From Paracoccaceae bacterium (lineage in GTDB: Bacteria > Pseudomonadota > Alphaproteobacteria > Rhodobacterales > Rhodobacteraceae), in assembly GCA_020832655.1 (NCBI GenBank), contig JAFIEF010000013.1:4316-68315 (forward strand): DNA of 64,000 bases, read 5' to 3'. This document shows positions 2,425-30,856 of this stretch, piece by piece; the stretch's first letter is position 1; every line of letters begins with the position of its first letter. Made by a program: the position numbers and the translations under genes. The notes beneath the pieces were generated by a model, which saw only the letters and a program-made list of their open reading frames with translations, was not told where the DNA came from and did no database searches.

Positions 2425-2496
2425 GCCCCTGCCCCCCGCGCGGGCTGTGTGCCCACCCACCCACCCTTGCACCCAACCCGCGCGGGGGACAGGGGC
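2425..2496. repeat. Hairpin element A: 20-bp stem (1 mismatch) around a (CCCA)3CCC loop, which reads as a G-quadruplex motif on the minus strand
   Basis: Arms 2425-2444 gcccctgccccccgcgcggg and 2477-2496 cccgcgcgggggacaggggc; core cccacccacccaccc at 2452-2466; lies between convergent dsbB and pepN. Confidence 0.9.
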
Positions 2497-2500
2497 GGCA

Positions 2501-5062
2501 CTACCCCAGCATCCGCGCGACCATCTCGCCCATATCGCGGCTCAGCGCGTCATGGCTTTCGATACGGCGCAATTCTGCCTGCATCAGCGCCTGGCGGTTC
2601 GCATCATAGCGTGTCCAGGTTTCGAACATGGTGGCCGTGCGCGCCGCGGCTTGCGGGTTGACCCCGTCCAGCCGGATCAGCCATTCCGCCGCCAGCCGAT
2701 AGCCTGCCCCGCCAGGGTCGTGGAACCCCGCCGGGTTGGCCCCCAGCGCCCCGATCACCGCGCGGAAGCGGTTGGGGTTGCGCCAGTTGAAATCGGGGTG
2801 TCGGGTCAACTCTGTCGTCAGCGCCACGGCGTGGTCGGGCGCGGCCAGGCTGATCTGCATGGCAAACCATTTATCCATCACCAGCCGGTCGGCTGACCAG
2901 CGCCGATAGAAGGCGCGGGTTTGCGCGGCCCCGTCGCCGATGGTCAGCAGCGCTGCCCATGCGCCCAGTTGTTCGGTCATGTTGTCGGCGCGCGCGAACA
3001 GGGCTGCGGCCTGCGCGCCGCCCTGATGATGGGCCAGCAGCGCCAGCGCCTGAAGCCGCAAGGCGCGCCGCCCGGCTGCTTCGGCATCGGGGCTGAACGG
3101 GCCGGGGGTGTCCATCTGGTCGATGATCTGCCCAAGTTCCGCCGCCAACCCTTCGGCAATGGCGCGGGTGACGCGCGCCCGCGCATGATAGATCGCCACC
3201 GGGTCGGGGGTATGGCCCGCCTCATTCAGGCTGGCGGCAAGGTCATCCTGTGACGGCAGGCGCAGCACCAGCGCGCGAAAGGCCGGGTCCAGCACGTCAT
3301 CGACCAGCACGCGCCCCAGCGCCGCGATATAGGCCGGGTCGGGCGCGGCATCTTGCAAAACTACATCATGCAGCACCGCGCGCGCCAGGGCGCGCCCGGC
3401 CTCGAAGCGGTTGAAGGGGTCCGTGTCATGCGCCAGAGCCAATGCGCGGTCCTGCGCTTTCAACCTGTGTTCCAGGATCACGGGTGCGGAAAAACCGCGC
3501 AGGATCGAGGGTACGGGCCGCGCCGCCAGATTGTCGAAACTGACGCTGAGGCTCGGGCCGTCAAGTTCCAGCACCTGTGTCGGCGCGACTTCCTGCCCGT
3601 CCGGCCCGATCAGCCCCAGCGCCACCGGGATCAGCAGCGGTTCCTTCAGCGGCTGGCCGGGGGTGGGGTCGGTGCGCTGGGTCAGATGCAGCGTATAGCG
3701 CCCCTCGGCCCAGTCTTCGGTGACGGTGACAACCGGGGTTCCGGCTTGTTCATACCAGCGCTTGAACTGCGACAGGTCGCGGCCTGCGGCTTCTTCGAAC
3801 ACGGCAATCCAGTCCTCGATGGTGCAGGCCTGCCCGTCATGGCGCGCGAAATACAGATCCAGCGCCGCGCGATAGCGATCCTCGCCCACCAGAAGATGCA
3901 GCATGCGGATCAGTTCCGCGCCCTTTTCATAGACTGTGGCGGTGTAGAAATTGTTGATCTCGACATAGCTTTCGGGCCGGACCGGATGCGCCAGCGGGCC
4001 GCCATCCTCGCGGAACTGGCGCGCGCGCAGCGTCAGCACATCCTCGATGCGTTTGACCGCATGGCTGCGCATGTCGCCCATGAATTGCTGGTCGCGATAG
4101 ACCGTCAGCCCTTCCTTCAGCGACAGCTGGAACCAGTCGCGGCAGGTGATGCGGTTGCCGGTCCAGTTATGGAAATACTCATGCGCGATGATGCGCTCAA
4201 TGCTGGCATAATCGCCATCGGTCGCGGTTTCGGGCGAGGCCAGCACATAGCGCGCATTGAAGATGTTCAGCCCCTTGTTTTCCATCGCGCCCATGTTGAA
4301 ATCATCGACCGCGACAATGTTGAACACATCCAGATCATAGGCGCGGCCATAGACCTGTTCATCCCACGCCATTGACCGTTTCAGCGCATCCATCGCGAAA
4401 CCGGTCTTGTCCTCATCGCCGTGCCTGACCCAGATATTGAGCGCGACCTCGCGCCCCTCGCAGGTGGTGAAGCGGTCGGTGGTGGCGACCAGATCGCCGG
4501 CGACCAGCGCAAACAGATAGCTGGGCTTGGGGTGTGGGTCGGTCCATTCGGCCCAGCCCGGCCCGCGGCCGGTGGGGTTGCCGTTTGACAAGAGCACCGG
4601 CAGGTCGGATTCGATGCGCACATGAAACGGCACCATCACATCGGGGCGGTCGGGATAGAAGGTGATCTTGCGAAAGCCTTCCGCCTCGCATTGGGTGCAA
4701 TACATCCCCCCCGAGGTGTAAAGCCCTTCCAGAGCCGTGTTGATATCGGGCGCGATCTCGACCTCTGCGCGCCACGCGAACCCGCCCTTGGGCAGATCGG
4801 CAGCCGGGATGGTCAGGCCGGTCGCATCAGGACGGGCAGCAATCGGCTGTCCCTCGATGCTGGCGCTGATCAGGCGCAGCCCCTCGCCATCAAGGCGCAG
4901 ATCATGGCCGGGGGCCGCGTCGGGGTTGGGAATAAAGCGGATTTCCGACAACACCCGAGTGGCACCGGATGACAGCCGGAAGGTCAGGCGCACATCGCTG
5001 ACAAGGAAAGGTGGCGGCTGATAGTCGGCCAGATAGACGGGCAGGGGGGCTGTGTCGCGCAT
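2501..5062 (-). CDS. pepN: Aminopeptidase N (M1 family)
   Basis: GAMENKG and HEYFH zinc motifs, VYEKGAE, C-terminal NPNRFRA; start placed at MRDTAP (5062) rather than the ORF-track start 5182. Confidence 0.97.
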   Translation of the reverse strand: MRDTAPLPVYLADYQPPPFLVSDVRLTFRLSSGATRVLSEIRFIPNPDAAPGHDLRLDGEGLRLISASIEGQPIAARPDATGLTIPAADLPKGGFAWRAEVEIAPDINTALEGLYTSGGMYCTQCEAEGFRKITFYPDRPDVMVPFHVRIESDLPVLLSNGNPTGRGPGWAEWTDPHPKPSYLFALVAGDLVATTDRFTTCEGREVALNIWVRHGDEDKTGFAMDALKRSMAWDEQVYGRAYDLDVFNIVAVDDFNMGAMENKGLNIFNARYVLASPETATDGDYASIERIIAHEYFHNWTGNRITCRDWFQLSLKEGLTVYRDQQFMGDMRSHAVKRIEDVLTLRARQFREDGGPLAHPVRPESYVEINNFYTATVYEKGAELIRMLHLLVGEDRYRAALDLYFARHDGQACTIEDWIAVFEEAAGRDLSQFKRWYEQAGTPVVTVTEDWAEGRYTLHLTQRTDPTPGQPLKEPLLIPVALGLIGPDGQEVAPTQVLELDGPSLSVSFDNLAARPVPSILRGFSAPVILEHRLKAQDRALALAHDTDPFNRFEAGRALARAVLHDVVLQDAAPDPAYIAALGRVLVDDVLDPAFRALVLRLPSQDDLAASLNEAGHTPDPVAIYHARARVTRAIAEGLAAELGQIIDQMDTPGPFSPDAEAAGRRALRLQALALLAHHQGGAQAAALFARADNMTEQLGAWAALLTIGDGAAQTRAFYRRWSADRLVMDKWFAMQISLAAPDHAVALTTELTRHPDFNWRNPNRFRAVIGALGANPAGFHDPGGAGYRLAAEWLIRLDGVNPQAAARTATMFETWTRYDANRQALMQAELRRIESHDALSRDMGEMVARMLG

Positions 5063-5278
5063 GACAATACTTTCAAGACCTGTTTGAGGCCGATGTAGCG
5101 CAGTGCGCGGGCGCGTGCAAATCAGCAGGCTGGAAGATGGGCCTGACACGGTGCAGGGCGGCACAAGCCGCTTGAAAACCATGCTTGCGATGGACAGAGT
5201 CGCACAGAATTGTGCTATCGCGGGCTTGTATCTATACCCGCCCGAGCCGATAGGGCAGGATCAGAAGGCAGGGCTTCC

Positions 5279-6364
5279 ATGTCAACACCAATGCCGATGC
5301 GTGCGCAAATCATCGCCTGGGGGGTCGTTGCCCTTGGGCTTCTGGCGTTGCTATGGGTGATGGGTGACGTGCTGCTGCCCTTCGTGACCGGGGCGGCGAT
5401 TGCCTATTTCCTGAACCCGGTGGTGCTGCGGCTGGCCGGGCTTGGCCTGCCGCGCACGCTGGCAGTGGCGCTGTTGATGGTGGCTGTGCTGGGCGCGGTG
5501 GTGGTGGCGGGGCTTCTGATCATGCCGGTGATCATCGGCCAGCTTGTGCAACTGAGCGAAACCGCCCCGACCTTGCTGCGCGACATGCAGGCCTTCCTGA
5601 CCGAGCGCTTCCCGCGGCTGGAGGGGCTGGAAGAACAATTGACCGCCTCGCTTGCGACATTGGGCGAGACGATCCGCGACCGCGGGGGCGATCTGGCACA
5701 AGGGCTTTTGCGCGGGGTGTCGGGGGTGGTCAGCGTGGTGATCTTTCTGATCGTTGCGCCGGTGGTGGCGTTCTATCTGCTGCTGGACTGGCCGCGCGTC
5801 CTGCAAGGGGCCGATGATCTGCTGCCGCGCCAGCATGCCGCGACATTGCGCGATCTGGCCGGGCAGATCGACCGTTCGATTGCCGGTTTCGTGCGCGGGC
5901 AGGTCACGGTGTGCCTGATTCTGGCGGCCTATTACGCCACCGCGCTGGGGCTGGTGGGGCTGCAATTCGGTCTGGCCATCGGGGTGGTGGCGGGGCTGAT
6001 TTCCTTCATCCCCTATATTGGCGCGATTGTGGGGGGCGTGCTGGCGATCGGGGTCGGGCTGTGGCAGTTCTGGGATGCACCGGGAATGATCGCGCTGGTG
6101 GTTGCCATCTTCGCTGTGGGGCAGGTGCTGGAAGGCAATATTCTGGTGCCGCGCATTGTCGGGCATTCGGTGCGGCTGCACCCGGTCTGGCTGCTGTTTG
6201 CGGTGACGGCTTTTGGCAGCCTGTTCGGCTTTACCGGCATGCTGGTCGCGGTGCCGCTGGCCGCCGCGATCGGGGTGCTGGTGCGCTTTGGGCTGGCGCG
6301 GTATCGCGCCAGCGCCCTTTATGGCGGCTCTGGCGCGCAAGCGCCGCGGCGGCGCGAGGACTGA
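5279..6364 (+). CDS. AI-2E (PerM-like) family transporter
   Basis: Multiple TM helices, FIPYIG and GHSVRLHPVW motifs; sits upstream of hdaA as is common; start at MSTPMP. Confidence 0.9.
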   Translation: MSTPMPMRAQIIAWGVVALGLLALLWVMGDVLLPFVTGAAIAYFLNPVVLRLAGLGLPRTLAVALLMVAVLGAVVVAGLLIMPVIIGQLVQLSETAPTLLRDMQAFLTERFPRLEGLEEQLTASLATLGETIRDRGGDLAQGLLRGVSGVVSVVIFLIVAPVVAFYLLLDWPRVLQGADDLLPRQHAATLRDLAGQIDRSIAGFVRGQVTVCLILAAYYATALGLVGLQFGLAIGVVAGLISFIPYIGAIVGGVLAIGVGLWQFWDAPGMIALVVAIFAVGQVLEGNILVPRIVGHSVRLHPVWLLFAVTAFGSLFGFTGMLVAVPLAAAIGVLVRFGLARYRASALYGGSGAQAPRRRED

Positions 6365-6365
6365 C

Positions 6366-7055
6366 ATGGCCCCTGCTGAGCAGTTCCATTTGCCGCTTTC
6401 ACTGCCCGCTTCGTACCGGCGCGGGGATTTTGTCATCGCGCCCTGCAATGCCACGGCGTTTCAGATGGTCCTGCGCCCGGACTGGCCTGCGGGAAAGCTG
6501 GCCCTGACCGGGCCGGAAGGGTCGGGCAAGACGCATCTGCTGCATATCTGGGCCGAGGCGTGTGACGCGGCGCTGCTGCAAGGGGCAGAGGATCTGCTGG
6601 CGGCGGATCTGCCTGCGCTGGGCCAGCGCGGCGGCGTGGCGCTGGACAACGCCCACAGCGTCGCGGGTGGCCCGCAGGCCGAGGCAGCGCTGTTTCATTT
6701 GCACAACCTGCTGGCCGCGCAGGGCGGCAAGCTTTTGCTGGCCGCGCGCGCGCCGGTGCGCGACTGGGGGGTGCATCTGCCGGATCTGGCCTCGCGGCTG
6801 CTGGCGGCCAGCCATGTGCCGCTTCTGGCCCCCGATGACGCGCTGCTGGAGGCCGTGCTGGCCAAGCTGTTTGCGGATCGCCAGATCAGCATCCCCGATA
6901 CGCTGATCCCCTATCTGCTGGCGCGGATGGAGCGGTCGCTGGCCAGCGCGCAGCATCTGGTTGCGCTGCTGGATGCGCAAGCGCTGGCGCGCAAGAAACC
7001 CGTCACCCGCGCGCTGGCCGCCGAGGTGATGCAAGGGCGTCTTGATCTGGACTAG
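6366..7055 (+). CDS. hdaA: HdaA/DnaA-homologous regulatory inactivator (AAA+)
   Basis: N-terminal EQFHLPL beta-clamp-binding motif, Walker A GPEGSGKT, DLASRL, ERS motif. Confidence 0.9.
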   Translation: MAPAEQFHLPLSLPASYRRGDFVIAPCNATAFQMVLRPDWPAGKLALTGPEGSGKTHLLHIWAEACDAALLQGAEDLLAADLPALGQRGGVALDNAHSVAGGPQAEAALFHLHNLLAAQGGKLLLAARAPVRDWGVHLPDLASRLLAASHVPLLAPDDALLEAVLAKLFADRQISIPDTLIPYLLARMERSLASAQHLVALLDAQALARKKPVTRALAAEVMQGRLDLD

Positions 7056-7080
7056 CCGCGCGCCAGACTTACACGCCAAG

Positions 7081-7130
7081 GCGCCCGCGCGCGGCACCCA
7101 CCCGCCCGCCCCTGCACCGCGCGCGGGCGC
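7081..7130. repeat. Hairpin element B: perfect 14-bp stem around a CCCACCCGCCCGCCCC loop (minus-strand G4 motif)
   Basis: Arms 7081-7094 gcgcccgcgcgcgg and 7117-7130 ccgcgcgcgggcgc; C-tracts at 7097-7112. Confidence 0.9.
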
Positions 7131-7264
7131 GCCTGATGCTGACGCATCAGGCAAGGGTGGCCGCGCAGCCCTGCCAAATCGCCACAAAGCCCGTCTGCGC
7201 CCTTGTGCGTGTCCCCCTTGCTGCATACATTCTGAACATTCCCAGTAGTGGTGTGGAGGCGTTC

Positions 7265-8218
7265 TTGAAAAGGTCATTTCTGCCGGTCGTTCTGGCCCTG
7301 ATTTCGGGATTTATCGCCATGCCTGCTGCCAGCGCTGCCTCTGAATTGCGCCAGATCAGGGCAGAGATCATGGTGCTGGAGCGTATCGCGCTGCCCGATG
7401 ACACGATGATCCTTGCCGAGTTGTCGGATATGAATGACAACCCGGTTGCGTCATTGCGCCGCCCAACCGATGGCGCGCAAAGCCCGTTCGCGGTGTCGCT
7501 GGAAGCACCATCCGGGCAGGATCTGATCCTGCGGGCCGGGCTGCGCGGTCTGGATGATGTGCTTTGGCTGGCCGAGCCCGTGATGCTGCCTGCCGGCGAT
7601 GACGATATCGAGCTTGCCGGTCTGCGCGCCCTGCGCACCGAGCGCATGGGCGCTGCGGCCGTGCTGCAATGTGGCAACCAGTTGCTGGAACTTGGCACCC
7701 TGCCTGATGAGTTGCGCCTGCGCTTCAACGAGCAGACATTGCAGCTGACCCAGTCAGAGGCAGCCTCTGGCACGCTTTATGTGGCCCCCGACAACCCCGC
7801 CACCCAGCTTCACATGAAAGGCGATGAGGGCATCTTGCGCATCGACGGGGCGGAACTTGCGCCCTGCCGCCTGATCGCGCCCGAAATAGCATTAAGCGAC
7901 AGCGTCTGGAACGTGACCTCGATCGATGGCAAGGCCACGATCTTCCCTTCGCGGACAGAGCTTGTCTTTTATCCCGATGGTCGCTTCAGCGCGACAGTGG
8001 GCTGCAACCGGCTTATCGGCAGCTATCGTCGTCATGGCGCAGTGCTTAGTATCGGGCGCATGGCCAGCACCATGATGGCCTGCCCTGACGGGTTGCAGCA
8101 GCAGGAACGCCTGTTCACCGATGCGCTGCAACGGGTCGATGGCTACAAGATCGACGCCGAGGCCGGGCGCGTGGTGCTGATGGCGGGCGGTCAGCCGCTG
8201 ATCAGCGCGCGGAAATAG
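7265..8218 (+). CDS. Exported multidomain protein: YbaY-like + MliC-like + META (HslJ) domains
   Basis: TTG start at 7265 after GGAGG, signal peptide; ERIALP (YbaY-like), C...ASGTLY...KG (MliC-like), GCNRLIGSY...STMMAC (META). Confidence 0.75.
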   Translation: MKRSFLPVVLALISGFIAMPAASAASELRQIRAEIMVLERIALPDDTMILAELSDMNDNPVASLRRPTDGAQSPFAVSLEAPSGQDLILRAGLRGLDDVLWLAEPVMLPAGDDDIELAGLRALRTERMGAAAVLQCGNQLLELGTLPDELRLRFNEQTLQLTQSEAASGTLYVAPDNPATQLHMKGDEGILRIDGAELAPCRLIAPEIALSDSVWNVTSIDGKATIFPSRTELVFYPDGRFSATVGCNRLIGSYRRHGAVLSIGRMASTMMACPDGLQQQERLFTDALQRVDGYKIDAEAGRVVLMAGGQPLISARK

Positions 8219-8286
8219 CATTGCCAGCCAGAATGCCCCGGCTGCGCCGTTACAAGATTGACAGAATTCGCGGATACAAGACCTTC

Positions 8287-10479
8287 ATGAGTGCAACACC
8301 ACAACAGCCCCCCAGCGCGGATTTCCTGAACGCGCCTTTCCCTGCGCCCAAGCATCTGGATGGGTTTGACCCGTCCGGTCCGCAGCGCTTCTTCAATCGC
8401 GAATTGTCATGGCTTGCCTTTAACTGGCGGGTGCTGGAAGAGGCGATGAACCCCCGTGTGCCGCTGCTGGAACGGGTACGTTTCCTGTCGATCTCTGCCA
8501 CCAATCTGGATGAATTCTATACCGTGCGCGTGGCCGGTCTGCGGCAATTGGCGATGGCGGGAAATACCACCCCCTCTGATGACGGGCTGACCCCGGCAGA
8601 GCAGTTGCTGCTGATCAACGAAGATGCGCGCAAGCTGATGGATTACCAGCAAGAGGTCTGGGCGCATCTGCGCCCTGCCTTGCATGCGTCCGGCATCACC
8701 ATCCTGACGCGCGATGACATGACCGATGCGGATCGTGCCGCCGCTTCGGCCTATTTTCTGGAAAACGTGTTTCCGGTGCTGTCCCCGCTTGCGATTGACC
8801 CGGCGCATCCGTTTCCGTTCATTCCCAATGCCGGGTTCTCTCTGGCGATGGAATTGCGCGACCAGCATGGGCGCAAGCTGGATGCGCTGGTTCCGATTCC
8901 CGGCCAGATTGACCGTTTCCTGCGTCTGCCGGGCGATCCCATTCGCATGCTGCCGCTGGAGGAGCTGATCCTGGCAGAAATGGACTGCCTGTTTCCCGGC
9001 TACCGCCTGCTGGGATCATGCACCTTCTCGGTTTTGCGCGACAGCGATCTGGAGGTCGAGGAAGAGGCCGAGGATCTGGTGCGCGAATTCGAGGTGGCGC
9101 TGAAGCGCCGCCGCCGCGGCGAGGTGGTGCGGATGAAGATTTCCGCAAGCGCGCCGCGCGATCTGCGCGAACTGGTGATGGAAGAACTGGGCGTGGCCGA
9201 GGAAGATGTCATCGAGGTGCAGGGCATCATGGGCATCTCGACCCTGAAGGAACTGGTGCTTGACGACCGCGCCGACCTGCTTTGGGCAGGGTTTACCCCG
9301 CGTGTGCCCGAACGTGTGCAGGATCATGGCGGCGACATGTTCGCGGCGATCCGACAGAAGGACATGCTGCTGCACCACCCCTATGAAACCTTCGACATGG
9401 TGGTGCGCTTCCTGCAACAGGCGGCGGGCGACCCCGATGTTCTGGCCATCCGCCAGACGCTTTACCGCACTTCGCGCGACAGCCCGATCGTGGCGGCACT
9501 GTGCGAAGCCGCAGAGGCCGGGAAATCCGTGACCGCATTGGTCGAGTTGAAGGCCCGCTTTGACGAGGCCGCGAATATCCGCCAGTCGCGCAGGCTGGAA
9601 CGCTCTGGCGCGCATGTGGTCTATGGCTTTGTCAATTACAAGACCCATGCCAAGATCAGCACTGTCGTGCGCCGCGAAGGCAACCGGCTGGTCACCTATA
9701 CCCATTGGGGCACAGGCAATTATCACCCGATTACGGCGCGCATCTATACCGATCTGTCGCTCTTTACCTGTGACGCGGCGCTGGGGCGCGATGCGACGCG
9801 GGTGTTCAACTATGTTTCGGGCTATGCCGAACCGGCGGCGCTGGAAAATCTGGCGATCTCGCCGCTGACGCTGAAGCCGCGCCTGCTGGAACTGATCGCG
9901 GCAGAGGCCGCGCATGCCCGCGCCGGGCGGACCGCGCAGATCTGGGGCAAGATGAATTCGATCATCGATTCCGATGTGATCGATGCGCTCTATGAGGCCA
10001 GCCGCGCGGGGGTAGAGATTTCGCTGGTGGTGCGCGGCATTTGCGGGCTGCGCCCCGGCATTGCCGGGTTGTCGGAAAATATCCGCGTGAAATCCATAGT
10101 CGGGCGGTTTCTGGAACATTCGCGCATTGTGTGTTTCGGCAATGGCGCGGGGCTGCCATCTGATCAGGCGCGGGTGTTCTTCAGCTCTGCCGACTGGATG
10201 GGGCGTAATCTGGTGCGCCGGGTGGAAACGCTGGTCGAGGCCGTGAACCCGACCGTCAAGTCACAGATCATGGGTCAGATCATGGCGGCCAATCTGGCCG
10301 ATCAGGCGCAAAGCTGGGTGTTGCAGCCCGATGGCCCGGCGCAGCGTGTCCTGCCATCCGAAGGCGAAGAACGCCGGTTGTTCAACTGTCACCGCTTCTT
10401 CATGGAAAACCCGTCCCTGTCGGGGCGCGGCTCTGCCGGGGCGCAGGATGTGCCCGAATTGATGCATGGGCCGGATTGA
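8287..10479 (+). CDS. ppk: Polyphosphate kinase 1
   Basis: FFNRELSWLAFNWRV, LLHHPYE (phospho-His), ELKARFDE, SADWMGRN. Confidence 0.97.
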   Translation: MSATPQQPPSADFLNAPFPAPKHLDGFDPSGPQRFFNRELSWLAFNWRVLEEAMNPRVPLLERVRFLSISATNLDEFYTVRVAGLRQLAMAGNTTPSDDGLTPAEQLLLINEDARKLMDYQQEVWAHLRPALHASGITILTRDDMTDADRAAASAYFLENVFPVLSPLAIDPAHPFPFIPNAGFSLAMELRDQHGRKLDALVPIPGQIDRFLRLPGDPIRMLPLEELILAEMDCLFPGYRLLGSCTFSVLRDSDLEVEEEAEDLVREFEVALKRRRRGEVVRMKISASAPRDLRELVMEELGVAEEDVIEVQGIMGISTLKELVLDDRADLLWAGFTPRVPERVQDHGGDMFAAIRQKDMLLHHPYETFDMVVRFLQQAAGDPDVLAIRQTLYRTSRDSPIVAALCEAAEAGKSVTALVELKARFDEAANIRQSRRLERSGAHVVYGFVNYKTHAKISTVVRREGNRLVTYTHWGTGNYHPITARIYTDLSLFTCDAALGRDATRVFNYVSGYAEPAALENLAISPLTLKPRLLELIAAEAAHARAGRTAQIWGKMNSIIDSDVIDALYEASRAGVEISLVVRGICGLRPGIAGLSENIRVKSIVGRFLEHSRIVCFGNGAGLPSDQARVFFSSADWMGRNLVRRVETLVEAVNPTVKSQIMGQIMAANLADQAQSWVLQPDGPAQRVLPSEGEERRLFNCHRFFMENPSLSGRGSAGAQDVPELMHGPD

Positions 10480-10564
10480 TCATGATCGCTTGTTGCCAGA
10501 TCGGGGCGTGTGTTGCAGGGTCTGCCTGAGCGGCTGGAGGCAAGGTTGTGCCGGGTGGCGCAAA

Positions 10565-10616
10565 AGCGCCCTCGGGCCGTGCCCACCCACCCACCCCTGC
10601 ACGCCCCGAGGGCGCT
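10565..10616. repeat. Hairpin element C: 12-bp outer plus 5-bp inner stem around a (CCCA)3CCCC loop (minus-strand G4 motif), followed by a second small hairpin
   Basis: Arms 10565-10576 agcgccctcggg and 10605-10616 cccgagggcgct; inner cgtgc/gcacg; adjacent cccgcgcg-tggcc-cgcgcggg at 10618-10638; lies between convergent ppk and rarA. Confidence 0.9.
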
Positions 10617-10667
10617 GCCCGCGCGTGGCCCGCGCGGGCGGGCGGGACGGCTGGCCATCCGCGGTGA

Positions 10668-11993
10668 TCAGCCGGATTTGCCGCTGCGCGTGGCGCGCAG
10701 CTTGGCGAAGAACGCAACCCGCTTGCCCAGTTCGCGTTCAAAGCCGCGTTCAACCGGCTGATACAGCACCGGGCGCTTGACGCCATCGGGGAAGTAGTTC
10801 TGCCCCGAAAATCCTTCTTCGGCGTCATGGTCATAGGCATAGCCTTCGCCATAACCCTGATCCTTCATCAGCTTGGTGGGCGCGTTCAGGATATGCTTGG
10901 GGGGGGGCTGTGATCCGGTCTGTTTGGCCAGCTTCACCGCCGCCTTCCACGCGACATAGCCTGCATTGGATTTCGGCGCGAGCGCCAGATAGATCACCGC
11001 CTGCGCCAGTGCCAGTTCGCCCTCGGGGCTGCCCATGCGTTCATAGGCTTGCCACGCATCCAGACACACGGTCTGCGCCTGCGGGTCGGCCATGCCGATG
11101 TCCTCGATGGCCATGCGCGCAAGCCGCCGCGCCAGATAGCGCGGGTCTTCGCCGCCCGTCATCATCCGTGCCAGCCAGTAAAGGGCTGCATCGGGGTCCG
11201 AGCCGCGCACCGATTTGTGCAGCGCCGAGATCAGGTTGTAATGCGCGTCGCCTGATTTGTCATATTGCGCCGCGCGCCGCGCCAGCCTTGCGCCAAGCGT
11301 GGCGCTGTCCAGCTTGCCTGTGACCTGCCATGCCAATACCTGCTCGATCAGGTTCAGTGCCGCGCGCCCGTCGCCATCGGCCATTTCCAGCAATTGCTCG
11401 CGCGCGGGGCCGTCAAGGGGCAGGGCGCGGCCCAGAAGTTTTTCGGCGCGCTGGGCCAGAAGCTCCAGATGCGCAAGGCTCAGCCGTGTCAGCACGATCA
11501 CCTGCGCGCGCGACATCAACGCGGCATTCAGTTCGAAAGACGGGTTTTCCGTGGTGGCACCCACCAGCGTGATGGTGCCATCTTCCATATGCGGCAGAAA
11601 GCTGTCCTGCTGGGATTTGTTGAAGCGATGGATTTCGTCAACGAATAACAGCGTGCCGCGCCCCTGGCGCTGGCGCAGCCTTGCCTGTTCGAACACCTTG
11701 CGCAGATCGGGCACGCCGGTGAAGATCGCGCTGATCTGGACGAAATGCAGATCGGTTTCATCGGCCAGAAGCCGCGCAATGGTGGTCTTGCCCACCCCCG
11801 GCGGCCCCCACAGGATGATCGAGCCGATCCGCCCTGCCGCCAGCATGCTGCCCAAGGGGCCGTCAGGGCCAAGCGCCTTGTCCTGTCCGATCACCTCTGC
11901 CAGCTTGCACGGGCGCATGCGGTCGGCCAGCGGGCGCGAGGCGCTGTCCGCGTCGCGTTTCGGGTCCGGGGTCTGGTCGAACAGGTCAGGCAT
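10668..11993 (-). CDS. rarA: Replication-associated recombination protein A (MgsA/RarA)
   Basis: PLADRMRP, Walker A GPPGVGKTT, DEIHRFNK, HKSVRGSDPDA, YAYDHD. Confidence 0.97.
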   Translation of the reverse strand: MPDLFDQTPDPKRDADSASRPLADRMRPCKLAEVIGQDKALGPDGPLGSMLAAGRIGSIILWGPPGVGKTTIARLLADETDLHFVQISAIFTGVPDLRKVFEQARLRQRQGRGTLLFVDEIHRFNKSQQDSFLPHMEDGTITLVGATTENPSFELNAALMSRAQVIVLTRLSLAHLELLAQRAEKLLGRALPLDGPAREQLLEMADGDGRAALNLIEQVLAWQVTGKLDSATLGARLARRAAQYDKSGDAHYNLISALHKSVRGSDPDAALYWLARMMTGGEDPRYLARRLARMAIEDIGMADPQAQTVCLDAWQAYERMGSPEGELALAQAVIYLALAPKSNAGYVAWKAAVKLAKQTGSQPPPKHILNAPTKLMKDQGYGEGYAYDHDAEEGFSGQNYFPDGVKRPVLYQPVERGFERELGKRVAFFAKLRATRSGKSG

Positions 11994-12043
11994 GGGCGCA
12001 GATTACGCCGATCTTGCAGCCGGTGAAAGAGCGCAAGCAGCGC

Positions 12044-12688: not shown

Positions 12689-12834
12689 TTTTGCTTTCCC
12701 TTGCTGACATCTGCCGCTATAAGCCGCTTAATCCCTGAAATCGAGGGTTCGCAGGCCCGGCCTGTAGCCGAATTCCCGGCACGAAGAAGTTATGCGCTTT
12801 GGACAAGCGCGCCATTATGACAGGAGTGGATGTC

Positions 12835-21404: not shown

Positions 21405-21414
21405 CGGGGCGTTG

Positions 21415-22590: not shown

Positions 22591-22626
22591 TCGGCCACAA
22601 TCGCGGCCTGTGCAAAGGGGATAGAC

Positions 22627-23961: not shown

Positions 23962-24033
23962 TCGCGACAATGCCGCCTTCACGCCACATTCCCGCCGCAA
24001 AGCGCGGCAAATGTGGATGTGAAGGAGGCTGCT

Positions 24034-24195
24034 ATGGCTTACATTGATCTTGAACTGCAAAATGCCCGCATCATCTGGCGCAATATCGCGGACCGGGTGC
24101 TGGTGATCGCGTTGATCCTTGCGGCGATGGGCGTGGCGAGTCTGGTCTCGGCCTATCTGGGCTATGCCCCGCAAGAAATGATGCCGATGCGCTGA
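24034..24195 (+). CDS. Small single-TM hypothetical protein (53 aa)
   Basis: Strong Shine-Dalgarno AAGGAGG at 24022-24028 before ATG 24034; one hydrophobic segment VLVIALILAAMGVASLVSAYLGY. Confidence 0.65.
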   Translation: MAYIDLELQNARIIWRNIADRVLVIALILAAMGVASLVSAYLGYAPQEMMPMR

Positions 24196-24471
24196 GCGCG
24201 CCAAACCTTGCGGATCTGACGGGCGCAGCGAAGACGTTGCGCCCCTTTCCATGTCGGATGCCATTATTCACACGAATCCAACACGCCCGCGCACAGCCCT
24301 GCCCGTACGCGCCGCCGGACCGCGCCCCAACTGCCACAGCTTGTCAGCGCGCCTCTGCGATTGCTTTGACTCCGCCGCAACAACTCGCTAGGCAGTGAGT
24401 AACAAAAATGCGGAAATACGGGGCCCGATATGCGCGGAATCTTTGCGATGCTGCCGTCGCGCAGAGGGGGT

Positions 24472-26829
24472 ATGGGCATTTGCCCGCACTTCTTTGCTGC
24501 GGCACTATTTTGTCTGATTTCATTGACAAGTTTCGCTTTTGTCGGACCTGCCTCTGCGCAGGATTTCCGCTTTGGCACAATCCAGATCGACGGCAATCAG
24601 CGTGTAGATGACAGCACCATTATCGGGCTGGCGGGAATCAGGCGGGGTCAGACGGTCAGCGCGGGCCAGCTTAGCGCGGCTGTGGGGCAGCTTTCCGGCT
24701 CTGGCCTGTTCGAAGAGGTTGATCTGGAACCGCGTGGCAATACGCTGGTGATCCGCGTCAAGGAATACCCGATCATCGGCATCGTGAATTTCGAAGGCAA
24801 TCGCCGCATCGATGATGATGACATCGCCGAAGTGGTGCAGACCACCTCTGGCCGTGTGTTGTCGCCTTCGGTGGTCGAAGCCGATGCGCGCGCAATTGCC
24901 GAGCTTTACAACCGTCGCGGGCGCACCGCGGCAGAGGTCACGCCGAAAATCCTGCCGCGCGGCGATAACCGCGTCGATCTGGCCTTCGAAATCCGCGAGG
25001 GCAATGTCGTCGAGATAGAGCGCGTCTCTTTCGTCGGCAATCGTGCCTTTTCCAACTATCGGCTGCGCCAGGTGCTCAGCACCAAGCAGGCGGGTGTGCT
25101 GCGCTGGATCATCCAGAGTGACACCTTCATCGCCGAACGCATCGCGCTGGATCGCCAGCTTCTGACCGATTTCTACCTGTCGCGCGGCTATGTCGATTTC
25201 CAGATCCTGTCGGTGACACCGGAAATGGCGCGCGAGCGTGACCGCTTCTTCCTGACCTTCAATATCCGCGAAGGGCAGCAATACCGCTTTGGTGATATCT
25301 CTGTCACCAGCGAGGTTGAAGGGCTGGATGCTGCCGCCTATCAAACCGAACTGCGCGTGCGTCCGGGCAATCTGTTCACGCCCACAACACTGGACCAGAG
25401 CATCGCGCGGCTGGAACAGCGCGCAGAGCGTGAAGGCCGCCGCTTCATCCGCGCCGAACCGCGCTTTACCCGCAACAACCGCACCCAGACCATCGATGTC
25501 GAATTTGCAATGGTGCGCGGCGAGCGTATCTTCGTCGAACGCATCGACATTCAGGGCAACACCACGACCCAGGACCGCGTGATTCGCCGGCAGTTCATCA
25601 AGGCTGAAGGCGACCCGCTGAACCCGCGCGAAATTCGCGAGGCGGCGGAACGTATCCGCGCGCTGGAATATTTTTCTGACGTTTCGGTGGAACCACGCGC
25701 CGGGTCAGCCCCCGATCAGGCCGTTATCGATGTCGAGGTGGAAGAGACAACGACCGGCTCGCTTGGCTTTTCGGTCAGCTATGCCCGCACGGAAGGCGTG
25801 GGTTTCGGCATCAGTTTTTCCGAGCTGAACTTCCTTGGTCGCGGCCAGCAATTGGGGGTCAACTTCAATGTCATCAAAGGTTCGCGCGATATCTCGCTGA
25901 TGTTCACCGAACCGGCGATGTTTGACCGTGACCTGTCCTATTCGTTTGGCATTGGATACCGCGAAACCAGCCAGCTCAATTCCAATTTTGACACCAGAAA
26001 TGCCTTCCTGAGCAACGCCATCGGCTTTCCGGTCAGCGAATTCGGTCGGCTGCAACTGCGTCAGGGGCTGGTGCTGGACCGGATGCGTGGCCTGAACAAC
26101 CTAGCTCTGCCGGGATTTGTCCCGGCGGATCCTGTCGCATCGAACCGGCTGGCCGATGATCAGGCAGCAGGAACAGCGATTACCGGTTCGCTGGGCTATA
26201 CCTACAGTTTCGATACGCGCGAAAAGGGGATCGACCCGTCACAGGGCATGGTCTTCAGCCTGTCGCAGGATTTCGCTGTCGGCAACAACAGCCGTCGTTA
26301 CGTCAAGACCGAAGCCCGCGCGGGCTATGAAATGGCGTTCTTCGGCGAAGACCTGAAGCTGATGGGCGATCTGCGTGGCGGGGCGTTGCACATGGTCAAT
26401 GGCAGATCGCGCTATTCGGAACGCTTCCAGCTTGCCGATGTCATGCGCGGCTTCCGCCACGGGGCATCAGGACCGCGTGACTTCGGCGCGACCAATAACG
26501 ATGTTCTGGGCGGCAACCGCTATGTCGTGGCTTCGGCAGAGGCGCGCTTTCCGCTGGGCACCCCCGAAGAATACGGGCTGTCGGGTGGCGTGTTTGCAGA
26601 TGTCGGCTCGGTCTGGGGCGTCGATAGTATCGGCGGCCTTGCAGGAACGGGTATGGTCAGCCCATTGGGTGAAAATTCCAACAAGATGCATCTGCGCGCC
26701 ACAGTCGGTGTGTCGATGTTCTGGGACAGCCCGCTGGGTGTTCTGCGCTTTGACTTCTCGCGCGCGGTGCGCAAGCGCCCCTATGACCGGACCCAGAATT
26801 TCGACTTCTCGATCGTGTCGCAATTCTGA
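24472..26829 (+). CDS. bamA: Outer membrane protein assembly factor BamA
   Basis: POTRA repeats, VLGGN, C-terminal aromatic residue; start placed at ATG 24472 after GAGGGG (ORF track begins 24430). Confidence 0.96.
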   Translation: MGICPHFFAAALFCLISLTSFAFVGPASAQDFRFGTIQIDGNQRVDDSTIIGLAGIRRGQTVSAGQLSAAVGQLSGSGLFEEVDLEPRGNTLVIRVKEYPIIGIVNFEGNRRIDDDDIAEVVQTTSGRVLSPSVVEADARAIAELYNRRGRTAAEVTPKILPRGDNRVDLAFEIREGNVVEIERVSFVGNRAFSNYRLRQVLSTKQAGVLRWIIQSDTFIAERIALDRQLLTDFYLSRGYVDFQILSVTPEMARERDRFFLTFNIREGQQYRFGDISVTSEVEGLDAAAYQTELRVRPGNLFTPTTLDQSIARLEQRAEREGRRFIRAEPRFTRNNRTQTIDVEFAMVRGERIFVERIDIQGNTTTQDRVIRRQFIKAEGDPLNPREIREAAERIRALEYFSDVSVEPRAGSAPDQAVIDVEVEETTTGSLGFSVSYARTEGVGFGISFSELNFLGRGQQLGVNFNVIKGSRDISLMFTEPAMFDRDLSYSFGIGYRETSQLNSNFDTRNAFLSNAIGFPVSEFGRLQLRQGLVLDRMRGLNNLALPGFVPADPVASNRLADDQAAGTAITGSLGYTYSFDTREKGIDPSQGMVFSLSQDFAVGNNSRRYVKTEARAGYEMAFFGEDLKLMGDLRGGALHMVNGRSRYSERFQLADVMRGFRHGASGPRDFGATNNDVLGGNRYVVASAEARFPLGTPEEYGLSGGVFADVGSVWGVDSIGGLAGTGMVSPLGENSNKMHLRATVGVSMFWDSPLGVLRFDFSRAVRKRPYDRTQNFDFSIVSQF

Positions 26830-27437
26830 TGCGTCAGCCCGTTCTGGCGGGATTGCTTTTCGGGGCGGCGGCTTTCATGCCTGCCGCCCCAGGCCATGCC
26901 CAGGGTCTGCCGGGGTTTTCGCTGGGCCAGCCTGTCCATGCCGATCTGGCCGATCCCCGGCTGCAATTGCGCACGCTGGATGAAGAGCGGCTGTTTCGCA
27001 ACTCGGCCTTCGGCCTGCGGGTCGAGGCAGAGATAGAAACCGCCTCGCGCGCATTGGAGGCCGAAAATGACGCGCTGCTGGAGCAGTTGACCGCGCGCGA
27101 GATGGAACTGACCGAAGCGCGCCCGCAGATGGACCCGGCCGAATTTCGCGCCGAGGCGGATCGCTTCGACCAGCGGGCACAGGAAATCCGCCGCGCCCAG
27201 GCGGAAAAGCGCATCCGGCTGGGACAGTATGAAGAAAACGAACAGCGCCGCTTCTTCCGTCTTGCCCTGCCAGTGTTGCGCGATGTGCTGGAAGAATCCG
27301 GCGCACAAATCCTGATCGACGGGCGCGCGGTCATCATCGGCGTGGCCGGGATGGACATGACCGATGACGCGATCAGCGCGCTGGATGAGGTTCTGGGCGA
27401 TGGCGGCCCCTCGCCCACTCCGTTGACCCTGCCATAG
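26829..27437 (+). CDS. skp: OmpH/Skp family periplasmic chaperone
   Basis: Signal peptide, coiled coil, DMTDDAI tail; lies between bamA and fabZ. Confidence 0.85.
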   Translation: MRQPVLAGLLFGAAAFMPAAPGHAQGLPGFSLGQPVHADLADPRLQLRTLDEERLFRNSAFGLRVEAEIETASRALEAENDALLEQLTAREMELTEARPQMDPAEFRAEADRFDQRAQEIRRAQAEKRIRLGQYEENEQRRFFRLALPVLRDVLEESGAQILIDGRAVIIGVAGMDMTDDAISALDEVLGDGGPSPTPLTLP

Positions 27438-27540
27438 GGCGCATATGCTTGTCAGCTTCCTGCGCGCTTGCTAGAGCAGTCTCGACATAGGGGCGTGCGT
27501 GCACTGCCCGCCATTCTGACCCGCCAAAGGACGTTTTCGC

Positions 27541-28032
27541 ATGACCGATTCTGCCGCCAGCCCTGACCTGACCGTGCCTTCCGAGGCGGATCTGGCCACC
27601 ATCATGAAGATCATCCCGCATCGCTATCCCTTCCTGCTGGTGGACAAGGTGCGCGACATCACGGCGCGGCAATCGGCGGTGGGCATCAAGAATGTCACCT
27701 TCAATGAACCGCATTTTCAGGGGCATTTCCCCGGTGCGCCGATCATGCCCGGTGTCACCATCATCGAGGCGATGGCCCAGACCGCAGCCGTGCTGGTGGG
27801 CATGTCGGTAGGTTTTGGCGACAAGGCGCCGCTGGTCTATTTCATGTCCATCGACAAGGCCAAGTTCCGCCGCAAGGTGGTGCCGGGCGATGTGCTGGAA
27901 CTGCATGTGCAGGTCAAGCGCGGCTCGACCAGGATCTGGAAATTCGAAGGTGTTGCCAAGGTCGATGGCGAGGTCGCAGCCGAGGCCGAATTTGCTGCCA
28001 TGATTGATGTCAATGCGAGTGTGTCGGCGTGA
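27541..28032 (+). CDS. fabZ: 3-hydroxyacyl-ACP dehydratase
   Basis: [21 protein letters not shown]. Confidence 0.98.
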
Positions 28033-28835
28033 ATTCCAGTCTGATTGACCCGAGCGCCCGGATTCACCCTTCGGCGATTGTCGAAGACGGCGCGCAGATC
28101 GGCGCGGGCAGCGTGATCGGTCCCTTCGCGATTATCGGGCCAGAGGTGGTTCTGGGCGACAATGTCACGGTCAAGCCGCACGCGCTTGTCACTGGCTGGA
28201 CCGAGATCGGCGCGGGCTGCACGATCTTTTCCTTCGCCTCGGTCGGCGAAGTGCCGCAGGATCTGAAATATGCAGGCGAACGCACAAGGTTGATCGTAGG
28301 CCGCAATTGCCGCATCCGCGAAAACGCCACGGTGCATCTGGGCACCGAAGGCGGGGGCGGGGTAACGCGCGTGGGCGATAACTGCCTGATCATGGCGGGC
28401 GCGCATGTCGGCCATGACGCGCAGATCGGCAATAATGTGATTCTGGCCAATTATGCCGGTGTCGCAGGTCATGTCATCATCGAACAGAATGTGATTGTGG
28501 GTGCCTCGGCAGGGTTGCACCAGTTCATTCGCGTCGGCGAAGGCGCGATGATCGGCGCGCTGACACGGGTGACGCATGATGTCATGCCCTTCGGGCTGGT
28601 TTCCGGCCCCGATGGGGAATTGCACGGGCTGAACCTGATCGGGCTGAAGCGGCGCGGCATGTCGCGCGATGATATCGCAGCTTTGCGCGCGGCCTATAAG
28701 CGGCTGGCCACGGAAGAAGGCGCATTGGGGGATCTGGCCGCCGCGTTGATGGTTGATGCCGGCGCAGAGGTCGTGCAACAGGTCGCGCGGTTTTTCACGC
28801 AGGATGCAGGCCGCAACTTCCTGCGCCCGAAATGA
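28029..28835 (+). CDS. lpxA: UDP-N-acetylglucosamine O-acyltransferase
   Basis: Hexapeptide repeats, PQDLKY, HVGHD, LHQF. Confidence 0.97.
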
Positions 28836-29659
28836 CCCGGATCGCGCTGATTGCAGGCAAGGGGCGCTTGCCCCGGATTCTGGCCCGGCGCTTGCGCGAT
28901 CAGGGCCAGACCCCGCTTCTGGCGCAGATGGAGGGGTTTGAAAGCCCTGTTGCGGGCGATGGCGATGTCATCCGCTTCCGGCTGGAACGGCTGGTGCCGT
29001 TTCTGGACAGCTTGCACGATCAGGGTGTTGCGCGCGCGGTATTTGCAGGCGCGGTGCATCGCCCGAGGCTGGACCCCGCGCTGATCGACCCCGCCACCAT
29101 GCAGCTTCTGCCGCGCATCATGGCTGCAATGCAGCAAGGCGATGACGGCACTTTGCGAGAAGTCATCGCGCTGATGGGCGAATGGGGGATAGAGGTGCTG
29201 GGCGCGCAGGATATCTGCCCGGATCTGGTCGCCACAGCCGGGGTGCTGGGGCAGGCGGCACCCAAGGGGCCGGACAAGCAGGACGCCGCGCGCGGCGGCG
29301 ATATATTGCGCGCGATGGGCGCAGCCGATGTGGGGCAGGGCTGCGTCGTCGCGCGCGGGCAATGTCTGGCGCTGGAAGCGCTGCCCGGCACCGATGACAT
29401 GCTGGCGCATCTGGCCGATCTGCGCGCGCGCCGCGATGATCTGCCCAGGGGCGGGGTGTTCTGCAAGGCACCGAAACCGGGGCAGGACAGGCGCATCGAC
29501 CTGCCCGCGCTGGGGCCGGAAACCGTGGCTGCGATTGCCCGCGCAGGGCTGAACGGCATTGCCTTTCAGGCGGGCGGGGTGCTGCTGATTGACCGCGCGG
29601 AAATGATCGCCGAGGCCGATGCGCAGGGGGTGTTCCTGTGGGCAACCGATCTGGCCTGA
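28832..29659 (+). CDS. lpxI: UDP-2,3-diacylglucosamine diphosphatase LpxI
   Basis: [26 protein letters not shown]; position between lpxA and lpxB. Confidence 0.93.
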
Positions 29660-30840
29660 GCATCTTTGTGATCGCGGGCGAGCCGTCGGGCGACAAGCTG
29701 GGGGCTGCGCTGATGGCGGGATTGCACGCGCTGGTGCCGGATGTCCGCTTTGACGGGGTTGGCGGTGAAGGCATGGCCGCGCAGGGGCTGGCCTCGCGCT
29801 TTGCAATGTCCGATCTGTCGGTGATGGGGCTGGCGGAAGTGCTGCCGCGCATCCGCCTGCTGCGCCGCCGTATCCGCGAAACCGCAGCCGCGATAGCGGA
29901 TACAAGGCCCGATCTTGTCGTCACCATCGACAGCCCGGATTTCTGCCTGCGGGTGCTGAAGCAGGCCCGCGCCGCGCGACCAGATCTGCCCGTGGTGCAT
30001 TACGTCGCGCCCTCGGTCTGGGCGTGGCGGCCGGGGCGGGCGGCCAGGATGGCCCCGCTGGTCGATCATGTGCTGGCGCTGCTGCCGTTCGAGCCGCCCT
30101 ATATGCAGGCGGCGGGCATGTCGTGTGATTTCGTGGGCCATCCGGTGGTGGCCGAACCGCGCGCCACACAGGCCGAGATCGCGGATTTCAAGGTGCGGTT
30201 TCCGGGGCCGTTGATTCTGGCTCTGCCCGGGTCGCGCAAGGGCGAGATCACGCGCCACGCGCCGCGCTTCGGGCAGGTTCTGGGGCAGGTTGCCCCGTCA
30301 GGCGCGCAGATCATCGTGCCGACAGTCGCGGCGCAGGCTGATCTGATGCGCGCGGCGGTGGCCGATTGGCCGGTTGCGGCGCATGTGATCGACGCCGCGC
30401 AGGACAAGCGCGCAGCCTTTGGCGCGGCAGATGTGGCGCTGGCGGCGTCGGGCACGGTGTCGCTGGAACTGGCGGCCAATGGCGTGCCGATGGTGATTGC
30501 CTATGATCTGAACCCGCTGACCCGCGCGCTGGCGCAAAGGCTGATCCGGCTGGACACGGTGACGCTGGTCAATCTGGTCTCGGAGATACGCGCGGTGCCG
30601 GAATTTCTGGGCCGCAACTGCACGCCCGCGCTGATCGCGCCCGCGCTTGCGCAGCTGATGAACGACCCGGACGCCCGCGCCCGGCAGCGCGCGGCGATGG
30701 CGATCACGATGGAACGGCTGGGGCAGGGGGGCGAGGCACCGGGCTTGCGCGCCGCGCGCTCGGTGCTGCGCTTCATGCAGCGCCCGCCTGTGCCCCGCCC
30801 AATCGGCAGCGCCCCACCCGCCCGCCCGCGCGCCGATTGA
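29656..30840 (+). CDS. lpxB: Lipid-A-disaccharide synthase; start uncertain (CTG 29656 or GTG 29638)
   Basis: IAGEPSGD, IDSPDF, APSVWAWRPGR, LPGSRKGE, ASGTVSLE. Confidence 0.95.
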   Translation: MSIFVIAGEPSGDKLGAALMAGLHALVPDVRFDGVGGEGMAAQGLASRFAMSDLSVMGLAEVLPRIRLLRRRIRETAAAIADTRPDLVVTIDSPDFCLRVLKQARAARPDLPVVHYVAPSVWAWRPGRAARMAPLVDHVLALLPFEPPYMQAAGMSCDFVGHPVVAEPRATQAEIADFKVRFPGPLILALPGSRKGEITRHAPRFGQVLGQVAPSGAQIIVPTVAAQADLMRAAVADWPVAAHVIDAAQDKRAAFGAADVALAASGTVSLELAANGVPMVIAYDLNPLTRALAQRLIRLDTVTLVNLVSEIRAVPEFLGRNCTPALIAPALAQLMNDPDARARQRAAMAITMERLGQGGEAPGLRAARSVLRFMQRPPVPRPIGSAPPARPRAD

Positions 30841-30856
30841 CCGGGGCACAGGCGGG
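30783..30856. repeat. Hairpin element D: 15+8+4-bp stem around a CCCCACCCGCCCGCCC loop (minus-strand G4 motif), overlapping the lpxB 3' end
   Basis: Outer arms 30783-30797 cccgcctgtgccccg and 30842-30856 cggggcacaggcggg; inner caatcggc/gccgattg; C-tracts at 30812-30827. Confidence 0.9.

Follow-up and report, generated by a model that had tools for sequence, protein, structure and literature searches.

A Family of Gene-End Hairpins with a Conserved C-Rich Loop and Two Strand Polarities in Rhodobacteraceae

Introduction

The DNA considered here, "the window", is a stretch of 64,000 nucleotides from a Paracoccaceae bacterium (assembly GCA_020832655.1, contig JAFIEF010000013.1, positions 4,316 to 68,315 of the forward strand). 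Four gene ends in the window carry a hairpin whose apical loop contains the motif (CCC[AGT])3CCC, or (CCCD)3CCC, with the complement (GGGY)3GGG, a candidate G-quadruplex (G4). An earlier note on the window had taken these hairpins, here called copies A to D of the C-loop family, for intergenic elements under selection for structure, and had suggested a hairpin/G4 switch, a role at gene ends or a transposase target.

The genomes compared are labelled G000 to G212, where G000 is the host genome and C numbers denote contigs; the window comes from host contig C37. The host assembly comprises 3.24 Mb in 121 contigs, has 62.8% GC and is 100% complete. Since four bioreactor metagenome runs contain 99% of its sampled words, it is a metagenome-assembled genome. 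The closest named relatives of its PepN are found in Roseinatronobacter, Natronohydrobacter and Roseibaca (73–78% amino-acid identity), which places the host among the soda-lake Rhodobacteraceae. The window also contains, at 62641–62819 (−), a full-length match to Rfam RF02647, the Ruegeria cis52 small RNA (111.5 bits versus a threshold of 56), and this match supports placement in the roseobacter/Rhodobacteraceae group.

The C-Loop Hairpins of the Window

The sequence CCCRCCCRCCCRCCC matches the window four times, always on the + strand (2452, 7097, 10582 and 30813), where dinucleotide-preserving shuffles give an expectation of 0.01. RNA folding places each of the four motifs in the apical loop of a strong hairpin (Table 1), so that the positions and architecture given in the earlier note are reproduced, as is the 23/24 identity of the cores of copies A and C (gtgcccacccacccaccc[t/c]tgcac). 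The neighbouring genes were named by codon-statistics gene calls and Pfam. Three copies lie between convergent genes, again in agreement with the note: copy A between dsbB(+) and pepN(−), copy C between ppk1(+) and rarA/mgsA(−), and copy D between lpxB(+) and a gene for a xerC/D-like recombinase (−). The neighbours of copy B, a hypothetical gene and a META-domain gene, are co-directional, both on the + strand. The description of the copies as intergenic needs one correction: it is only partly true of D, whose 5′ arm and loop form the final 20 codons of the lpxB reading frame.

The copy A hairpin begins 1 nt past the dsbB stop codon (2421–2423), and its 3′ end is 4 nt short of the minus-strand pepN stop (2501). 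Its stem of 24 pairs includes three A.C/C.A/T.C mismatches, and its loop, 2452–2469, holds CCCACCCACCCACCC. Copy B is 25 nt downstream of the stop of the hypothetical gene (6321–7055), and its first hairpin has the stem GCGCCCGCGCGCGG/CCGCGCGCGGGCGC and a loop with CCCACCCGCCCGCCC. Copy C lies downstream of ppk1 (8233–10479), with the end of the convergent rarA/mgsA at 10668; an A-tract (AAAAGCGCCC...) stands ahead of its first hairpin, in whose stem a C.C mismatch, 5 bp from the loop, is conserved. The composite regions of B (7076–7160) and C (10545–10645), in neither of which hairpin 1 was folded alone, fold at −51.5 kcal/mol (z −3.8) and −67.5 kcal/mol (z −3.3), respectively. Copy D folds at −65.8 kcal/mol (z −6.6).

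Table 1. Hairpins of the C-loop family in the window.
Feature	Position	Strand	Description
Copy A	2425–2496	+	Single long hairpin, type 2; −54.7 kcal/mol, z −5.4; no second hairpin
Copy B, hairpin 1	7081–7130	+	Type 1; first of a two-hairpin composite; motif 7097–7111
Copy B, hairpin 2	7131–7152	+	GCCTGATGC-tgac-GCATCAGGC
Copy C, hairpin 1	10565–10616	+	Type 1; motif 10582–10596
Copy C, hairpin 2	10617–10643	+	GCCCGCGCG-tggcc-CGCGCGGGC
Copy D	30780–30857 (approximate)	+	Single long hairpin, type 2; 24–26 pairs; motif 30813–30827; no second hairpin

A Dispersed Family in the Host Genome

The host genome contains 36 perfect (CCCD)3CCC loci, a count that leaves out homopolymer artefacts at contig ends, and about nine degenerate members. 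Three of the 36 overlap the 3′ ends of open reading frames; the remaining 33 are found outside the called genes. At all 36, the (GGGY)3GGG complement of the C-run satisfies the intramolecular G4 motif (four G-runs of at least 3, spacers of 1–7 nt). A gapless enclosing stem exceeds the 99.9th percentile of 2000 random positions at 30 of the 36 loci; the earlier note's association of G4 motifs with inverted repeats is thus well beyond chance. Most of the remaining six form longer bulged or branched hairpins in RNAfold, and the 8-tract locus C75:1442 is convincingly enclosed in neither test.

The stems are GC-rich and span 12–29 bp, and the loops measure 15–22 nt. Two types can be distinguished. 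Type 1 (about 16 copies, including B and C) consists of an A-rich tract, AAGCGCCC-variable-loop-variable-GGGCGCTK, and then a second hairpin, often GCCYGATGC-N-GCATCRGGC in the host; 10 of the genome's 12 hairpins of this latter type, to which hairpin 2 of copy B belongs, adjoin a C-loop hairpin. In type 2, with about 15 copies, A and D among them, there is one long hairpin that reaches 29 bp at most, and its stem sequence is either unique or common to a few copies only.

The number of host copies may be underestimated, since at least one host contig break falls where a relative has a copy: the flanks of one G001 element map to the ends of host contigs C13 and C44. Host contigs often end in or contain long poly-C or poly-G runs (e.g., C3:1–47, C13:1–49, C119:2618–2671 and C111:49434–49510), and these runs are probably sequencing or assembly artefacts.

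Other repeats and hairpins were encountered in the host. At G000:C34:27333–27470, two adjacent hairpins with CTCCTCCTCCCT and CCTTCTCCTCCCT loops are like the CCUCCUCCC-loop (CcsR/cuckoo-type) small RNAs of alphaproteobacteria. A second dispersed repeat has the form GCGCAAGATGAA-(about 20 nt, GTCGGGGCGCGGATGATGGGT)-TTCATCTGGCGC, and a recurrent hairpin, TTAAAGCATT-GAAGGCGATTCAACGAAAAGCCGA-AATGCTTTAA, is found for the most part close to contig ends; neither is related to the C-loop family. These other repeats occur on many host contigs (e.g., C21:15641, C19:54196, C76:44298 and C111:98924).

Selection on the Stems and on the Loop

To assess covariation, 28 type-1 hairpins (three genomes, two genera) were aligned. 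Eleven of 17 stem pairs have changed on both sides, and 84.9% of the cells are paired, as against 31–57% in controls that shift the partners by one to three columns; the observed values are attained in 0 of 500 shuffles. This alignment supports the view, put forward in the earlier note, that structure is selected: the stems differ while their pairing is kept through compensatory changes.

The loop, in turn, is conserved at exactly four tracts. Intergenic runs of 3, 4, 5–7 and 8 tracts number 14, 32, 0 and 1, whereas the corresponding coding counts are 46, 3, 0 and 0 and fall off as chance predicts. All 50 loci from G001, G100 and G149 have four-tract loops (the G085 loci are outside this count).

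Sense Orientation and Replication Polarity

The copies are placed with respect to the genes that precede them. Tandem, convergent and divergent spacers hold 22, 14 and 0 host copies, respectively, where spacer length predicts 20.6, 6.0 and 9.4, a 2.3-fold enrichment in convergent spacers. The distance from stop codon to hairpin base could be measured in 25 cases; it is at most 10 nt in 11 of them and has a median of 22 nt, and the next gene start on the same strand is a median of 105 nt from the element. In G149 and G085, the hairpin often begins 1–3 nt past a TGA.

The C-rich strand is the sense strand of the immediate upstream gene at 34 of the 36 host loci. It matches gene sense in 19 co-directional spacers versus 2 (p = 2 × 10^−4), and at 25 of the 26 loci in G100 and G149 with a recognisable upstream gene. 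It follows that the upstream mRNA carries a C-rich loop and that the G-run is on the template strand, which excludes an RNA G4 for the upstream gene.

A second rule concerns replication. The C-run is on the G>C strand in 27 of the 30 host elements with informative local skew (p = 5 × 10^−4), while only 61% of host genes are co-oriented with the skew. The C-rich strand is the leading strand, and the G-run is on the leading-strand template. Convergent spacers are the cleanest test of this polarity because sense leaves the orientation unconstrained there, and in 11 of 12 the C-run has the sense of the gene on the leading strand. Gene orientation is a partial confounder of local skew, though not of the pattern at contig scale. 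In G149, the hits are on the + strand in 26 of 26 cases in contigs C1 and C7 and on the − strand in 11 of 11 in C8–C10. In G085, strand agreement is 8/9 up to a switch inside C2, then 15/16 and 6/7 (about 33/37 overall). The GC skew of the flanks, read on the C-run strand, is above zero in G001, G100, G149 and G085 (z 3.6–17.6). Since neither the sense rule nor the replication rule predicts the other at the strength observed, both must act.

The two rules bear directly on the G4 motif. In replication, the lagging-strand template is usually regarded as the more exposed strand. G4s of the (GGGY)3GGG kind, with 1-nt loops, are among the most stable parallel G4s (PMC4880955, PMC3592437); GGGTGGGTGGGTGGG forms an exceptionally stable parallel G4, and the isolated G3T oligonucleotide folds (PMC4880955). 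In E. coli, the mutability of (G3T)n is 270–354 times higher if its G-rich strand is non-template, and with the G-rich strand as template it behaves as though no G4 forms (PMC7023247). The C-loop elements have their G-run on the template of transcription (19/21 co-directional, 34/36 upstream) and on the leading-strand template (27/30). This orientation is the G4-suppressing one in transcription and, on the usual view of the lagging strand, in replication as well. The functional hairpin/G4 switch suggested in the earlier note finds no support in it, the more so as the E. coli repeat does not fold when so oriented and is then the more stable by the factor just given (PMC7023247).

Gain, Loss and Distribution of Copies

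Copies are gained and lost between species. Copy D is part of an insertion of ~105 nt relative to three congeners (G008, G023 and G013), in which the tails of lpxB and the convergent xerC-like gene overlap directly (...GCTGCGCTTCATGGCTTCG...). In the host, the insertion separates lpxB from the xerC-like gene (30871–31806, minus strand), and the element supplies a 20-residue tail, QRPPVPRPIGSAPPARPRAD, to LpxB (30781–30840; stop 30838–30840). A MITE would be expected to have conserved terminal inverted repeats with a target-site duplication on either side; the edges of the insertion, GCTGCGCTTCATG on the left and GCTGCGGGCGCTTGGTCAG on the right, form an imperfect target duplication of about 13 nt, seen at this one clean filled-versus-empty site. 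At the orthologous junction of G004 (L253, C164), there is an unrelated hairpin, CCGGGCAGGGTGGGT-gaa-ACCCACCCTGCCCGG, which indicates that different palindromes were acquired independently where lpxB and xerC meet tail to tail.

Comparison with G001 gives a similar picture. Opposite several G001 elements, the host spacers are shorter and motif-less, and at L196 (G001) versus host C33, a 64-nt first hairpin is cleanly missing from the host; the sites other than that of copy D are too diverged for a duplication to be read. G001 and the host share one orthologous hairpin, downstream of tRNA-Asp, whose stem is nearly identical and whose loop is inverted between the two species. Copy C has 90–100% identical copies in G018 and G020, where the flanking genes are only about 80% identical.

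Copies A and C also mark changes in gene order. The dsbB/pepN adjacency of copy A is found in 0 of 40 congeners and the ppk1/rarA adjacency of copy C in 0 of 12, the partners being 33–212 kb apart or on separate contigs. We conclude that these elements (A, 2424–2500; C, 10480–10667) sit at lineage-specific rearrangement junctions. The motif is present at none of 80 loci from other Rhodobacteraceae genera and at none of 29 congener loci at the copy A site. A comparison of the META-domain protein with metagenome contigs returned relatives of at most 44% identity and no orthologous loci. In the source population, contigs of the four source runs span A and B with zero differences, and neither a loop flip nor presence/absence variation was seen. 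A plasmid BLAST gave no match.

The family is patchy in Rhodobacteraceae. Among 24 congeners, motif counts range from 0 to 145 (145 in G020, 52 each in G001 and G017, and 41 in G018), while 16 genomes from other families have 0 or 1. The search also took in 200 other genera of the family, each represented by a single genome; most have 0–3 motifs, and expansions are found in G100 (124), G149 (46), G085 (37), G190 (20) and G212 (17). The loci of G001, G100, G149 and G085 have the same architecture, with closing bases and stems that are genus-specific. The universal part across genomes is the loop only.

Comparison with Known Systems

REP elements (repetitive extragenic palindromes) of gamma-proteobacteria, with their BIME and REPIN arrangements, offer the closest likeness. 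They too are short, GC-rich extragenic palindromes, present in tens to hundreds of lineage-specific copies that are gained and lost, and they are often two-hairpin composites located after genes. The C-loop family shares with them its many extragenic palindromic copies at gene ends; none of its host copies is in a divergent spacer. The REPs of E. coli are transcribed, stabilise the upstream mRNA and, within about 15 nt of a stop codon, affect translation termination. In contrast to REPs, which are mobilised by REP-associated tyrosine transposases (RAYTs), the C-loop family has a variable stem, a conserved large loop of 15–22 nt, and an orientation that is strict for both transcription and replication. 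All that the copies share is the loop and an outer GCGCC/GGCGC; type-1 copies start AAGCGCC, and no GTAG or CGTC head was seen by inspection, a systematic scan not having been made. The RAYT domain Y1_Tnp (PF01797) is found neither in the host nor in 9 of 10 other high-copy genomes, although positive controls matched. A REP/REPIN-RAYT system was therefore rejected. The earlier note was right to hold that this is no ordinary REP, whereas its HUH-transposase target finds no cognate enzyme in these same genomes.

Intrinsic terminators likewise are GC-rich hairpins right past stop codons, enriched in convergent spacers and absent from promoter-only ones; C-loop copies differ in being related by descent, in coming and going between species, and in conserving their loop sequence. 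A consensus terminator scan of the window gave 17 sites, versus 15.6 expected, none of them at an element. Hairpin-only terminators that lack a U-tract do occur in high-GC bacteria, and TRIT is a repeated terminator hairpin of Mycobacterium tuberculosis.

No Rfam family reaches its threshold on any of the four copies, and the sole match in the window is the unrelated cis52 RNA mentioned above. The Rhizobiales-2 RNA motif, with 16 members, all from Rhizobiales, and no known function (Weinberg et al. 2010, PMC2864571), resembles the family in being alphaproteobacterial and in having a C-rich-loop hairpin (CCCAUCCACCCC) directly followed by a second GC-rich hairpin. Its loop is not (C3N)3C3, however, and it was rejected as an identity: against the 40-bit gathering threshold of RF01723, copy C scores 21.1 bits and the best site in the genome 27.1, with similar values in control genomes. 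Integron attC sites were set aside, with no formal test, as the copies are dispersed after housekeeping genes and form no cassette array.

According to the Quadrupia survey of the tree of life, G4 motifs in bacteria are over-represented immediately beyond gene ends, on the template strand (PMC12581993). The C-loop family has the same arrangement and is a concrete, extreme instance of this trend. The survey reports a statistical trend, with no hairpin-loop architecture, repeat family or replication polarity, and Rhodobacteraceae are absent from its main text (PMC12581993). Full-text literature on the motif, on G4s and terminators, on REPs and on Rhodobacteraceae yielded no description of the family, which thus appears to be undescribed. 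Among gene-end palindromic repeats, which are of a known kind, it is unusual in its conserved loop, its variable stems and its double polarity.

What the Family May Do

The reading that we prefer, tentatively and with a little less than even confidence, is that of a REP-like, RAYT-less family of gene-end hairpins that would form or protect transcript 3′ ends, and in which the G4 would be tolerated and unused. Copies lie directly past stop codons, where transcription would make each the 3′ hairpin of its upstream mRNA and leave the C-rich loop exposed. Such an RNA-level barrier could form or protect the transcript end, as REPs do in E. coli. The invariant C-rich loop may be the recognition site of a C-binding factor, possibly Rho, which is the best-known factor of this kind in bacteria. 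It is tempting to propose that the strict orientation reflects the loss of copies that put the G-rich strand on the displaced single strand, i.e., either the strand that is non-template for transcription or the one that the lagging strand is copied from in replication. The G4 would then be a suppressed liability rather than a working part. A role at gene ends, as the earlier note had it, is plausible.

Several observations weigh against this proposal. By a codon-bias proxy, the upstream genes show no sign of high expression (p = 0.15). Metatranscriptomes of the same study place about 15 reads on 10 kb, so that the organism and its relatives are almost without reads; a low-coverage RNA run from a relative of G149 was uninformative, and for G085 there are no RNA runs. 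The copies are not canonical intrinsic terminators, as their loops are 15–22 nt rather than 3–8 nt and a sense U-tract is present in only 7–11% (a T-tract of at least 3 follows 5 of 76 hairpins overall and 5 of 44 type-1 copies). Replication polarity, moreover, is no prediction of a role confined to RNA.

The remaining adverse points are asymmetries between the strands. Mismatches in the stems of the C strand, in a gapless count, are A.C/C.A in 16 cases, C.C in 15 and G.T in 1, and those of the A.C type read as G.T wobbles on the G strand. The G strand is the stabler folder in 58 elements versus 23; for copy A, the values are −64.0 kcal/mol for the G strand and −54.7 for the C strand. A count of G.U pairs from unconstrained minimum-free-energy folds (111 vs. 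103) was set aside in favour of the restricted gapless one, being uninformative because such folds run past the true stem. Many of the A.C mismatches are 4–8 bp from the loop, in unrelated stems, and two genera conserve the C.C mismatch of type 1; from known deamination biases, the reverse mismatch pattern would be expected. An A-tract (at least 3 A) stands ahead of hairpin 1 in 24 of 44 type-1 copies and a T-tract behind in 5 of 44 (p = 4 × 10^−4). Seen from the G strand, this is a hairpin followed by a U-tract. Either the C strand, which is exposed, is held to weaker folding, or a separate role falls to the G strand.

The strongest competitor of the gene-end RNA hairpin, which we nevertheless consider unlikely, is a selfish mobile element, specific for structure, whose DNA would move in single-stranded form at the replication fork. 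Its substrate would be the folded C-rich strand on the lagging-strand template and its enzyme something other than a Y1 transposase; effects on the host would be incidental, and position and sense would reflect tolerated insertions. The replichore-level polarity is indeed like that of IS200/IS605-type single-strand transposition, but taken alone it predicts sense agreement of about 61%, where 19/21 and 25/26 are observed. Presence or absence at orthologous sites and the imperfect ~13-nt duplication at copy D are what such an element would leave, although there is a single clean insertion boundary and the duplication is inexact. Patchiness among genera, bursts of up to 145 copies, and near-identical copies in species whose genes are about 80% identical also suit mobility. 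The conserved loop and the recurrent mismatches 4–8 bp from it would fit strand- and structure-specific recognition; selection on pairing and on the exact four-tract loop across genera is, however, hard to explain for something functionless. Finally, Y1_Tnp is missing from the host and from 9 of 10 high-copy genomes, nor did any candidate enzyme come to light.

A broader and rather doubtful idea sees in the family a new kind of polar genome device or of mobile DNA: the (CCCR)3CCC loop would be what identifies the hairpin, and fork direction and transcription together would set its orientation. The hairpin might be copied at the fork by a single-strand-specific, non-Y1 enzyme, or else act as a template-strand G4 roadblock in an extruded cruciform that ends transcription in U-tract-poor genomes.

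That a DNA G4 or cruciform is the working part strikes us as improbable. Supercoiling would extrude the cruciform, and the template G-loop would fold and either block RNA polymerase at gene ends or flag the DNA to a G4-binding protein. High intracellular cation levels, which are likely in soda-lake bacteria, would count in favour of this. So would the stabler G-strand hairpin, in which G.T wobbles replace A.C mismatches, and the retention of exactly four tracts; five or more tracts would be equally foldable, yet 5–7 tracts occur at 0 loci and the only longer run has 8. The 1-nt-loop parallel G4 is very stable (PMC4880955, PMC3592437), but the GC stem of 12–29 bp is a strong competitor to opening. 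Bacteria in general tend to have G-runs on the template past gene ends (PMC12581993); in the C-loop elements, the G-run is on the strand least often single-stranded, in transcription and in replication, and E. coli (G3T)n forms no G4 during transcription in that orientation (PMC7023247).

Least probable of all are antisense or convergent terminators, in which the G-strand RNA would run through hairpin 2′, hairpin 1′ with its G-rich loop and a U-tract, and shield the 3′ end of the upstream gene: the A-tracts (24/44 ahead vs. 5/44 sense T-tracts), the 16-to-1 excess of G.U wobbles on the G strand, the 2.3-fold convergent enrichment, and copy C, where a rarA transcript would end in a hairpin and UUUUG, are set against 22 of 36 copies in co-directional spacers whose G strand is read by no annotated gene, hairpins that abut the stop codon of the sense gene and not that of the convergent one, simple hairpins in G149 and G085 without A-tracts, and the possibility that the A-tract is instead a target preference or serves the sense RNA.

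Implications

The C-loop family, spread over several genomes, provides a natural test of the conditions under which bacterial chromosomes tolerate a very stable G4 motif. Two orientation rules hold for dozens of independent copies, and these rules match the orientation dependence found experimentally in E. coli. The elements also mark synteny breakpoints, and their strand could serve as a replichore marker in draft Rhodobacteraceae genomes. As a class of gene-end hairpins whose loop is kept across genera while the stems drift with compensation, the family points to a factor that binds C-rich loops. Possibly, this factor takes part in the ending or protection of transcripts in high-GC bacteria, where U-tract terminators are rare.

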